In this document: piece after piece, positions 54,478 to 60,065 of the stretch
How positions within the stretch are numbered: position 1 is the stretch's first letter
How the letters are laid out: each line of letters begins with the position of its first letter
Assembly: GCA_023920165.1 (NCBI GenBank)
Contig: CP089277.1
Span: 1-64,000 of the forward strand
Reading direction: 5' to 3'
Length of the DNA: 64,000 bases
Origin: Curvularia clavata
Lineage: Eukaryota
Made by a program: the position numbers and the translations under genes
Notes under the pieces: generated by a model
What the model was told of the DNA's origin: nothing
Seen by the model: only the letters and a program-made list of their open reading frames with translations
The model's database searches: none

Positions 54478-54641
54478 GCTCGGCGCAGCACCGAGCCTCT
54501 ATAAATCGCAATTCTTAGTGTGTCCAGACTCTTCTGAAGCTGTGTAAGAATTAAAAGCATGATTTGATATCGGTATGCTCCAAGAAATGACACGTGATCC
54601 GTGGACAGATTCCAGTGTTCGCAGCTCGGGCTTCATCCGAG
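54478..54641. promoter_or_regulatory. Two TCGG-N7-CCGA palindromes upstream of xhrA (candidate Zn2Cys6 sites)
   Basis: GCTCGG-cgcagca-CCGAGC (54478-54496, just before TATAAA) and CTCGG-gcttcat-CCGAG (54625-54641). Confidence 0.7.
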
Positions 54642-54757
54642 ATGTAAAGCACATGCCATCCAGTGCTACTCGACGTCATCAAGAGAATACGTCAAAGATA
54701 AGGTCACTCAACATTCCATAGTCTCAAGGTATTTTTGATGTAGCAAAAACTATAGAC

Positions 54758-55580
54758 ATGTCGTTGAACAATAAGATTGCAATCGTCACTGGCGGCGCCC
54801 GTGGAATTGGCAGGGGTATTGTCCTAGCATTGGCAAAAGCAGGCGCAAGGGTATGTGGTATGATGATGATCAAAGATGAAGGACGATGCTAATTTGCGAT
54901 AGGTTTGCTTTACATATGTCTCTCAATCCTCCTCTGGGCACGCCAAGTCCCTCATTAGAGAAGTCGAGGCTTTTGGTTCCAGTGCCCTTGCGATCCAAGC
55001 AGATAGCCGCGATCTGTCTGCCCCGAATCACGTCGTATCCAAAACCCTAGCTTCGTTTAAAGCCAACAAAGTTGACATTCTCATCAACAATGCAGGGTTG
55101 GGCTCTGCAGCAACAACACTGGAGGAGATCACCATTGAGGAATACAACAACGTGATGGACGTCAACGTACGTGCTATAGTCTTCATGACCCAGGCCTTTG
55201 TGCGTCACATCGGTCGGGGCGGACGTATTGTCAACCTTTCCTCGATATCTGCACGGGGCGGCTTTGCAACACAATCGGTGTACTCGGCCTCGAAAGCTGC
55301 GGTGGAGGGATTAACACGGGTCTGGGCGACTGAGCTGGGTCACAAATATGGAGCAACCGTCAACGCTGTGAACCCAGGGCCTGTAGATACCGATATGTAC
55401 AGAGCTGCAGGAGAGGTACACCTGGCGCGCATGGAAGAGCAGAACAAGAAAACCCCTGCAGCGCCAAGGGCTGGCACTGATGGTGATGTGGCAGATATAG
55501 TGCTCTTTCTCTGCGAGGAAAGATCGAGATGGGTGACAGGTGATGTGGTTTGCGCAAATGGCGGTATGCTGTTCATTTGA
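54758..55580 (+). CDS. xhrA: Short-chain dehydrogenase/reductase, probable L-xylo-3-hexulose reductase
   Basis: TGGARGIG, NNAG and YSASK motifs; intron 54851-54902. The C-terminal half closely resembles my recollection of A. niger XhrA, and it is linked to galX/ladB-like genes. Confidence 0.8.
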
Positions 55581-55760
55581 TAGATAGGTTATACCACCTG
55601 ATGCAGGGTTTGAGAGGGCTTAAAGCTATACTATTATCGTATCAGAAACCGCGGTGTAGTCTCGTTCGTACGTTAGTGTAGTTGATGTTTGATCAGAGCA
55701 AACAGAAGCCATGTGCAGTACGAGATGGTCTACATGCAGCGAGTGATAAGAGCGTTCTGG

Positions 55761-58044: not shown

Positions 58045-58417
58045 GCTGATCTGATTGTTGGCATTGAGAGAAGAGTGCCGACAACTGAAGATAGAGTCTG
58101 CAAGGGTAGTTGCAAGCGGAGGCAGCCACATGGCGCTAAGGCGCCACTAACCTACCCCGCATGAAGGAAAAAGGCACTTGGTCATGCACAGATAATATAA
58201 GAAACAGATCGGTCTCTTTTATAAGCTTGCAAGCTATAATTTTGTTCACAGTAACCAGACATGATTGTGAAGGATTACAGGACTGGGTCATCATTCGTAT
58301 GATGTGACAAACACGAGACAGACGTTTTAAACATCGCCTCGGCTTTCAGCCATCGTCAACAATACAAAGCCCCAGTATCTAATGCTCAATAGAAGATTCT
58401 TAGTAGAGAACTGGGCT

Positions 58418-59658
58418 TTATTCGTCAAGAATTTGCACTTTGATGGCTCTTGCAGCTGGCGTAGATGCGGTTTCGAAGGCCTTGATACCCTCTTCTAGCG
58501 TGTAACGATCTGAAATTCATCAGCCAGCAAATCGGCCTGCAGCCACGTGTACTTACGTGTCACAAGGGGCTTCAAGTCTATCAAACCTTCGCTGACTAGG
58601 TCGATTGCCCGCGGATAGGTGTCATGGTATCGGTATTGGAACCGCAGATCAATCTCCTTTGATGACAGATGCATGAATGGTATGTTCTGAAAGTCGTTTC
58701 CCACTCCAATCACGAACACGGCACCTCCGAACCTGGTCGCCTAATTGCGAAGATCAGTCTGAATTGATTCCCAGCCGCTTAGGGAGGATTCTTACATATA
58801 TGCCAGCCTGAATGCTTGATTCTACACCAGTACACTCGAGTACAAGCTCAGCTTCGATACCCAGCTTTTCCACTATTTTCTTGGCTAGGGCTTTTGAGTC
58901 CCCTTCTCCATTCACTTGCATTGTTCTCACGCGAGGTACAAGTTTCTTGGCCATCTCCAGGCGGTTCTCGTCAAGATCAGTGATAACAATGGGTGCTGCC
59001 CCAGCAGCATGTGCAGCTAGGAGAGTGACTATCTCGATTGGTCCTGCGCCACATATGGCCAGAGAAGTTCCCAGCCTTAGATTCGACCTTTCGATACCGG
59101 CTAGGGCAACTGATAGAGGCTCGAGGAGCGAGCCTTCTTCGTACGTGAGTGAGTCTGGCAAAGCGTGCAGCCACGCTTCTGGATGTACGTGATATCGGCG
59201 TAGAGTACCATCAAATGGTGGTGTTGAGAAGAACTTGACGTTGGGGCAAGCGTTATAGCGGCCGGTGCGGCAGAAATAGCAGGTTGGCAGAGAGCAAGGA
59301 ATACCACATTCGAGTGCGACACGATCACCTGTTTGAGAAATCAGCGCCACTGACGAAGGCATTGGGCTTACATACCTGGTTTGAACCGAGTCACTTCCTT
59401 GCCTGTTTTGATCACAATGCCCGCGCTCTCGTGGCCTAGGCCATTTTCTCCAACAACTACCATATCACCGATCTTTCCATGCTTCCAAAAATGTACATCC
59501 GAACCACAAATACCAGTAGCACGGACGTGTACAAGGCACTCCGTGGGACCTGGCTCAGGTACATCAGACTCCACCAAGTGAAGGCCGTGTTGAGGATTTG
59601 TGTTGACCGAGATGTTACGTGGTTTACGCCCCAGGACTTCTGTAAATGTGGACAACAT
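58418..59658 (-). CDS. ladB: Zn-dependent polyol dehydrogenase, probable galactitol dehydrogenase (LadB-type), 4 exons
   Basis: GICGSDVHFW, GHESAG, structural Zn Cys, FFSTPP and FQYRY. Introns 59329-59375, 58741-58795 and ~58510-58556. The Rossmann motif reads GAGPIE. Confidence 0.82.
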
Positions 59659-59772
59659 GATTACTGTAAGGTGTAATTGCTGGGGTTTCAAAGCTGCTGC
59701 GAGAGTTGTTAATTGAAATATCACTTCGCTTGCCCGAATGTTTCCTGCATACTAGGAACTCTATCATGCTTG

Positions 59773-60065
59773 TCGGTAGCGCACCGAGCTTGTTAGATAC
59801 CCCTCATTTCGGAGAGTTTGCGGAACCAATTCGTGTGGAGTGAATAAGCTGTTGAGAGAGCACATCCGTTCGGGCCAGAGCCGACGAATCTGGGCGCCCT
59901 AAATCCAGAAGAGGGTTGAAGTTAGCATCGCATGACTTTCCCTTCATTATCTACAGTTATTACACAACTTCAGAGTGCGCCGAGCTCAACCACCGAGCCA
60001 TAGGGTTAGGCTTGGCCTGTTTGGCGGTCGGTCTGATGTCTGATTGGCTCGGTGCCACGCCGAGC
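59773..60065. promoter_or_regulatory. Three TCGG-N7-CCGA palindromes in the divergent ladB/transporter promoter
   Basis: Copies at 59773-59787, 59870-59884 and 60049-60063 (the last extends to GCTCGG-N7-CCGAGC). Confidence 0.7.

Follow-up and report, generated by a model that had tools for sequence, protein, structure and literature searches.

The first 64,000 nucleotides of contig CP089277.1 of Curvularia clavata (assembly GCA_023920165.1), the whole of which we call the window, contain a cluster of four genes: an xhrA-like reductase, a galX-like Zn2Cys6 regulator, a ladB-like polyol dehydrogenase and a sugar transporter. Within this 64-kb window there are five exact matches to the palindrome TCGGNNNNNNNCCGA (TCGG-N7-CCGA), and all five lie within two intergenic promoters of the cluster that together span 1,128 bp (509 + 619). 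Judged from its sequence setting, the palindrome is probably the upstream activating element of the D-galactose oxidoreductive-pathway cluster in this Pleosporales-like fungus. The genes are listed below; the exon ends of the ladB-like gene and the start and first intron of the transporter gene are our own reading of the sequence.

54759..55580, forward strand: xhrA-like short-chain dehydrogenase (SDR) gene, one intron at about 54851-54902; Pfam adh_short_C2, E 5.5e-47
55761..58044, reverse strand: galX-like Zn2Cys6 regulator gene; Pfam Zn_clus and Fungal_trans
58418..59658, reverse strand: ladB-like medium-chain polyol dehydrogenase gene (L-arabinitol 4-dehydrogenase family); Pfam ADH_N and ADH_zinc_N
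60277..62418, forward strand: sugar transporter gene, major facilitator superfamily; Pfam Sugar_tr in two exon pieces, E 5.6e-30 and 1.6e-33

A first-pass annotation, made from the letters alone, had named these genes galX, xhrA, ladB and transporter, and the names are supported by Pfam matches, by identity to relatives and by synteny of consecutive locus tags. The SDR has a glycine-rich nucleotide-binding motif at its N-terminus and is 65-69% identical to proteins whose sources name them L-xylo-3-hexulose reductases (5 of the 120 homologs among the matches listed). The ladB-like gene, which is oriented divergently from the transporter gene, encodes a dehydrogenase with 72% identity to an Aspergillus section Nigri protein cluster, and in the respective assemblies the locus tags of that cluster and of galX are 4, 6 and 8 genes apart. 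This fits the A. niger gene numbers, LadB being An16g01710 and XhrA An16g01650 (PMC4651341). The regulator also adjoins the SDR in other fungal classes, as seen from the consecutive locus tags W97_00756/00757, FSARC_13182/13183 and Q7P37_000602/000603, which come from Coniosporium apollinis, Fusarium sarcochroum and Cladosporium fusiforme. The window thereby shows the linkage of ladB-like and xhrA-like genes to a galX-like gene that is characteristic of the GalX regulon.

The first of the two site-bearing intergenic stretches, 54250-54758, lies 5' of the SDR gene, and the second, 59659-60277, lies between the divergent ladB-like and transporter genes. The five sites are listed here together with a near-copy and the lone half-sites found in the same promoters.

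54438..54454: near-copy TCGC-N7-CCGAGC, differing at one core position; it belongs to the xhrA-like promoter, and its centre is about 314 nt before the ATG
54478..54496 (core 54480-54494): site 1, full GCTCGG-N7-CCGAGC, centre 272 nt upstream of the xhrA-like ATG
54624..54642 (core 54626-54640): site 2, GCTCGG-N7-CCGAGA, centre 126 nt upstream of the xhrA-like ATG
59771..59789 (core 59773-59787): site 3, TGTCGG-N7-CCGAGC, centre 122 nt upstream of the ladB-like ATG
59868..59886 (core 59870-59884): site 4, GTTCGG-N7-CCGACG, centre 219 nt upstream of the ladB-like ATG
59980..59998, forward strand: two lone CCGAGC half-sites (starts 59980 and 59993) forming the direct repeat CCGAGC-N7-CCGAGC, between sites 4 and 5
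60047..60065 (core 60049-60063): site 5, full GCTCGG-N7-CCGAGC, centre about 222 nt upstream of the transporter ATG
60179..60184, reverse strand: lone GCTCGG half-site, about 95 nt upstream of the transporter ATG

The centre of site 5 is also 398 nt upstream of the ladB-like ATG, and from the transporter ATG the centres of the divergent-promoter sites are about 222, 401 and 498 nt away. Across all sites, the centres fall 122-498 nt from the ATGs, and such distances are typical for fungal upstream elements. The near-copy, with its core at 54438-54452, is one of only seven one-mismatch matches in the window. Of the five sites, site 5 alone has contig cover, one DNA contig of run X6 spanning it with zero differences; the rest of both promoters is mostly uncovered by contigs.

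The first-pass annotation had reported the five exact sites, the extension of two of them to GCTCGG-N7-CCGAGC and the view that they did not arise by simple duplication. A pattern search of the window recovered all five sites and placed the two extended copies at 54478-54496 and 60047-60065. The spacer is seven bases long in all five cases and its sequence is different in each, and no longer repeat unit was present around the sites when one was looked for. It is therefore the sequence of the element that is kept, not a duplicated segment, and a duplicated promoter segment or mobile element as the source of the sites was rejected on the same grounds. Counted by hand over both halves of each palindrome, a C precedes TCGG in seven of the ten half-sites, a G precedes that C in seven, and an A comes next in five. 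These counts give the fuller consensus (A)GCTCGG-N7-CCGAGC(T), which sites 1 and 5 match completely. All five sites contain the inverted CGG triplets (CGG-Nx-CCG) of a Gal4-class Zn2Cys6 dimer site, and they share with that class a spacer of fixed length and free sequence. They also have its multi-copy upstream placement, with two exact copies and one near copy in the SDR promoter and three copies in the divergent promoter.

Several other features were observed in these promoters. The divergent promoter holds a second shared box of 15 nt, TAYTCAYTCCACACG, at 59832-59846 on the reverse strand and 60087-60101 on the forward strand, in mirror orientation. One copy neighbours site 4 and the other site 5, in both cases at a distance of exactly 23 nt, and the ladB-like and transporter ATGs follow about 175-190 nt further on. 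The box is absent from the xhrA-like promoter, and no further copy with up to two mismatches was found in the window. Its possible roles include that of a core-promoter element and that of a binding site for a second factor. CreA-type SYGGRG sites and CCAAT boxes are present in the promoters as well.

To gauge how often such a pattern arises by chance, dinucleotide-preserving shuffles were used. Across 100 shuffles of the window, the mean was 0.58 matches and the maximum 3, so that none of the 100 reached five. When only the two promoters were shuffled, 19,701 of 20,000 shuffles had no match, 298 had one and a single shuffle had two, for a mean of 0.015; none reached three. The spacing is equally specific, as a search for TCGG-Nx-CCGA in the window with x from 0 to 20 gave five matches at x = 7 and 0-2 at each other value. 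We also ran an unbiased scan, in which the palindrome proposed beforehand was not used; it covered ~10,240 dyads, inverted as well as direct, built from 3-mers and 4-mers separated by 0-15 bases. TCGG-N7-CCGA ranked first, with five copies in the promoters and none elsewhere (Poisson p 4.8e-13), and CGG-N7-CCG ranked second. The top 6-mer was CCGAGC/GCTCGG, with 10 copies in the 1,128 bp of promoters versus 15 in all the rest of the window (62.9 kb). For comparison with outside DNA, 34 unrelated metagenome loci (~312 kb) contained the pattern six times and never twice per locus; these loci, drawn from among the matches listed, had been fetched for another purpose, their lengths were summed by hand and they include some duplicates.

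The presumed binder is encoded between the sites, as the sole zinc-cluster gene of the neighbourhood stands between its presumed targets. The closest relatives of this regulator come from Pleosporales (Pyrenochaeta sp., 84% identity), with Aspergillus proteins next at 63-66%. Paraphoma chrysanthemicola and Ophiobolus disseminans are among the other fungi with a galX ortholog. Against A. niger An16g01640 (P0121 in our set), which falls within the 90% cluster of the A. tubingensis match, it shows 64% identity over 359 residues without gaps, and its DNA-binding part shows 58% identity over 50 amino acids. An16g01640 is named galX in a table of PMC5493111 and in a figure legend of PMC11847290, and by these alignments the Zn2Cys6 gene of the window is a GalX ortholog. 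Two of its introns, 56057-56158 (102 letters) and 57232-57280 (49 letters), are revealed by run X3, whose spliced contigs skip them and whose joints have CT..AC ends on the forward strand, and a third at about 57829-57874 is our own putative reading. The spliced contigs indicate that the regulator gene is transcribed in the X3 organism, which is at least 99% identical to the window. These contigs lack two letters in an AT run near 57655 (57640-57665, minus strand), and without those letters the frame of the second exon continues into the next open frame, as it does in the orthologs.

Proteins resembling GalX were found at 51-84% identity over ~87% of the query in Dothideomycetes (including Aureobasidium and Cladosporium) and in Sordariomycetes (Fusarium, Clonostachys, Sporothrix), examples being P0004, P0016, P0019, P0060, P0101 and P0104, and an xhrA-like gene is often adjacent. 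This distribution agrees with PMC3998117, where GalX is present in a subset of ascomycetes, and disagrees with PMC5468973 and PMC9605165, in which it is genus-specific, confined to Aspergillus, or lost in Aureobasidium. When metagenome contigs were scanned with the regulator, 11 of the 34 loci listed were paralogs at 28-31% identity over most of their length, and for most of the remaining loci among those listed the match was confined to the zinc-cluster stretch. Locus L006, a 48% match, was rejected as a GalX relative because on reading it proved to be a different zinc-cluster gene. Scans of prokaryote genome contigs and viral contigs found no relatives.

We then considered whether the DNA-binding part of the regulator suits a site of this form. 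When 20 orthologs drawn from Dothideomycetes, Sordariomycetes and Eurotiomycetes are aligned, the residues of the zinc cluster show no variation or hardly any, and the distance from the last cysteine to a conserved tryptophan ~30 residues further on is unchanged in most rows. With the zinc cluster near-invariant across these orthologs, the same site is predicted for Aspergillus GalX. A homodimer was modelled from two copies of residues 1-100 of the ortholog P0004, which is 84% identical to the large exon of the window protein; the alignment was not used in the modelling. The model scored 0.40, against 0.00 for the best of three controls. Among proteins solved as pairs of one chain, 21 of 30 pass the mark applied to such models, and among those solved as single chains none of 23 does; in a eukaryotic calibration it was reached in 17 of 29 pairs, and in only one of the seven that lack an older solved relative. 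Runs of the P0004 dimer agreed in at least 86% of contacts, with a partner pLDDT of at least 66. The predicted contacts are symmetric (55:55, 59:59, 62:62, 66:66, 69:69, 73:73 and 77:77) and begin five residues after C43, the last zinc-cluster cysteine. Such a pattern looks like a parallel coiled coil just behind the zinc cluster, and the N-terminal model of P0004 thus favours a homodimer without demonstrating one. Among solved structures, the DNA-binding piece of the window protein matches Lac9 best (E 8.2e-05) and then Put3, with Gal4 also among the best.

Taken together, we consider it fairly likely, from the arrangement of sites and genes, that TCGG-N7-CCGA is a GalX response element, bound by a GalX homodimer that would activate the genes for the reductase, the dehydrogenase and the transporter in concert. 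If GalX works as Gal4-class factors do, each zinc cluster would read one CGG triplet plus the flanking T and GC, and a short linker and the parallel coiled coil behind the zinc cluster would hold the two triplets seven bases apart and inverted. We propose that, with the distance between triplets set by linker and coiled coil, the sequence of the spacer is left free. Once activated by its inducer, GalX would switch on the XhrA-like reductase, the LadB-like galactitol dehydrogenase and the sugar transporter jointly, with the three divergent-promoter sites serving both flanking genes. We infer GalX as the binder, activation as the result of binding, and galactose or galactitol as the signal, the last from published Aspergillus genetics. 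In A. nidulans, deletion of galX leaves ladB expression almost lost (PMC9151342), which links target and regulator genetically in Aspergillus. A GalX site had already been proposed in the first-pass annotation, and that idea is strengthened by the dimer-site form, the confinement to the cluster promoters, the orthology of the regulator to GalX and the dimer predicted for an ortholog. One part of it fell away: the degenerate TCGG-N7-CCAT upstream of the regulator (58339-58353) has two mismatches, and it is at chance level, with two such matches seen in the galX upstream region versus about one expected. Since there are 160 two-mismatch matches in the window, this copy carries no weight, and its reading as a sign of galX autoregulation was rejected.

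Several points weigh against the GalX reading. The region upstream of galX itself holds no site above the chance level and so gives no hint of autoregulation. A single locus of a single genome supplies all the evidence, and in principle these sites could be bound by any other dimer of the zinc-cluster class. The contigs of runs X3, X4, X6 and X8 (26 of 31 pieces at least 99% alike) include no cross-species relatives, and at ~99% likeness they provide no evolutionary footprint. The dimer prediction was made on the ortholog P0004 instead of the window's own protein, and as solved relatives exist in Lac9, Put3 and Gal4, passing the mark may reflect only likeness or memory in the model. Finally, the galX frame as given in the window stops soon after the AT run near 57655. 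The break is either an assembly error or a real frameshift in the galX of this strain; if it is real, the strain may lack full-length GalX, and the sites would be recent relics or serve another factor.

This last point bears on the alternative that survives best, namely that the sites are real and are bound by a different Zn2Cys6 dimer encoded elsewhere, such as a broader sugar or polyol regulator, with GalX working via another sequence or via that factor. The form of the site identifies only the class of factor and not the member, the galX promoter itself is without a site, and the sites are intact in a window whose galX frame appears to be broken. Zinc-cluster factors encoded within a cluster generally regulate that same cluster, however, and the palindromes occur in the three promoters around the regulator gene and nowhere in the other 62.9 kb. 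Galactose genes in Aspergillus are co-regulated by GalR, AraR and XlnR (PMC9151342, PMC4651341), which speaks for a factor of this kind; against it, ladB depends on galX in Aspergillus (PMC9151342), and a 2017 review's table of plant-biomass regulator sites has none of this form (PMC5468973). On balance, we regard binding by such a factor as unlikely.

We give still less credence to the idea that GCTCGG is the working element on its own, recognised as a half-site by a monomer or by a factor outside the zinc-cluster class, with the N7 palindrome secondary. Four of the ten GCTCGG/CCGAGC copies do lie outside the exact palindromes, at 54449 (within the one-mismatch copy), 59980, 59993 and 60179, and those at 59980 and 59993 form the direct repeat CCGAGC-N7-CCGAGC. 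The other six are paired at exactly N7, however, and no spacing other than N7 is enriched. Sites 3 and 4 keep TCGG/CCGA and lose outer GC, which makes the inverted, fixed-spacing core the better preserved of the two units. Least probable of all is that the palindromes are transcript hairpins, DNA cruciforms or functionless chance or leftover repeats. Sites 1 and 5 fold stably as RNA (-9.7 and -14.2 kcal/mol, z -2.6 and -3.7), but the other three reach only -5.2 to -7.4 kcal/mol, values matched by 12, 43 and 31 of 200 shuffles. Nor do the stems co-vary: their letters are identical in every copy, which points to sequence recognition. On these two grounds a hairpin function was rejected. Chance is excluded by the shuffles and the dyad scan, just as a duplicated segment is by the lack of a longer repeat.

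Elsewhere in the window, no TCGG-N7-CCGA was found near the other genes annotated by Pfam, which are as follows.

6470-7786, reverse strand: AsqO-like / Diels-Alderase-like protein
22268-23884, forward strand: ferric reductase
39263-40408, forward strand: Egh16-like family protein
42758-44263, reverse strand: ABC transporter
45221-45895, reverse strand: epoxide hydrolase

Directly 3' of the transporter gene, at 62812-63999, two open frames have weak matches to HTH_38 and DDE_3 transposase domains, and this segment is possibly a Tc1/mariner-like element or its remnant. Upstream of the xhrA-like promoter, 54000-54240 is AT-rich with short repeated units. With transposase-like frames and AT-rich repeats at its flanks, the cluster may have DNA of transposon origin on either side.

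GalX controls the oxidoreductive D-galactose pathway in Aspergillus, a genus of industrial converters of plant biomass. The first-pass annotation did not recall its site as described, and we likewise found no description of a GalX site in the searchable literature, including that since 2018; this coverage is without the original galX (Gruben et al. 2012) and xhrA (Mojzita et al. 2012) papers. The table of the 2017 review gives 'Unknown' for the GalX binding site (PMC5468973). The motif in six spellings had no match in the searchable literature, and no GalX DAP-seq in Aspergillus was found there. The words 'binding' and 'motif' are absent from PMC9151342, as is 'binding site' from PMC8961234.

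From Pleosporales to Aspergillus, conservation extends over the zinc cluster, the linker and the coiled coil, and on that ground this element would be a mark of the regulon throughout Pezizomycotina. That GCTCGG-N7-CCGAGC is a hitherto unreported GalX element with this wider role is a more tentative proposal, one that we put forward as possible but short of probable from the sequences compared. If it is true, the regulon could be read from sequence in A. niger and its relatives, including the transporter and further galactose or galactitol genes. More generally, a candidate of 15-19 bases would permit genome-wide prediction of the GalX regulon, and the adjacent sugar transporter is nominated as a co-regulated galactose or galactitol carrier. 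The element could also serve as a compact inducible promoter element. It involves no new principle, adding one more spacing to the known inverted-CGG family for a regulator whose site is, as far as searched, unpublished.

The closest parallel is with the Gal4 and Lac9 sites of budding yeasts, in which, as in TCGG-N7-CCGA, inverted CGG triplets are held at a fixed spacer length with free spacer sequence. The spacer of the Gal4 and Lac9 sites is 11, whereas it is 7 here, and here the triplets carry a 5' T and often GC. Inverted CGG triplets are likewise read at N10 by Put3 and at N6 by Ppr1. The promoter architecture is also alike, as GAL1-GAL10 and LAC4-LAC12 have several sites in a promoter shared by divergent genes, one for a catabolic enzyme and one for a permease; the divergent promoter with multiple LAC9 sites is that of K. 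lactis LAC4-LAC12. Multiple LAC9 sites in a divergent promoter are the subject of a title in the reference list of PMC11497787. In both systems the binder is, or is proposed here to be, a Zn2Cys6 factor whose zinc cluster is followed by a coiled coil, which in our case is predicted in an ortholog. The pathways differ, being Leloir in the yeasts and oxidoreductive here. GAL4 and GalX share only 20% identity (PMC5468973), so the regulators are not orthologs.

Among filamentous-fungal sugar regulators, the sites are CGGN8(C/A)GG for AmyR, CGGN8CGG for InuR, CGGN5CGGNCCG for CLR-1 and CGGN11CGG for CLR-2/ClrB (PMC5468973). They resemble the present element in placing CGG triplets at a fixed distance in catabolic gene promoters and differ from it in orientation or spacing, none being an inverted repeat with N7. 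By half-site, the nearest relatives are Ppr1 of yeast and UaY of Aspergillus nidulans, which control pyrimidine and purine pathways through TCGG-N6-CCGA. Their extended half-site, TCGG/CCGA in inverted orientation, is the same, whereas the spacer is 6 there and 7 here; a search for TCGG-N6-CCGA gave no match in the window. Finally, the AflR site TCG-N5-CGA and the GliZ site TCGG-N3-CCGA belong to regulators of secondary-metabolite clusters. As here, the zinc-cluster gene lies inside the cluster and a short palindrome is repeated in the intergenic regions, whereas the cluster described here is a primary catabolic one, with three target genes and another spacer.

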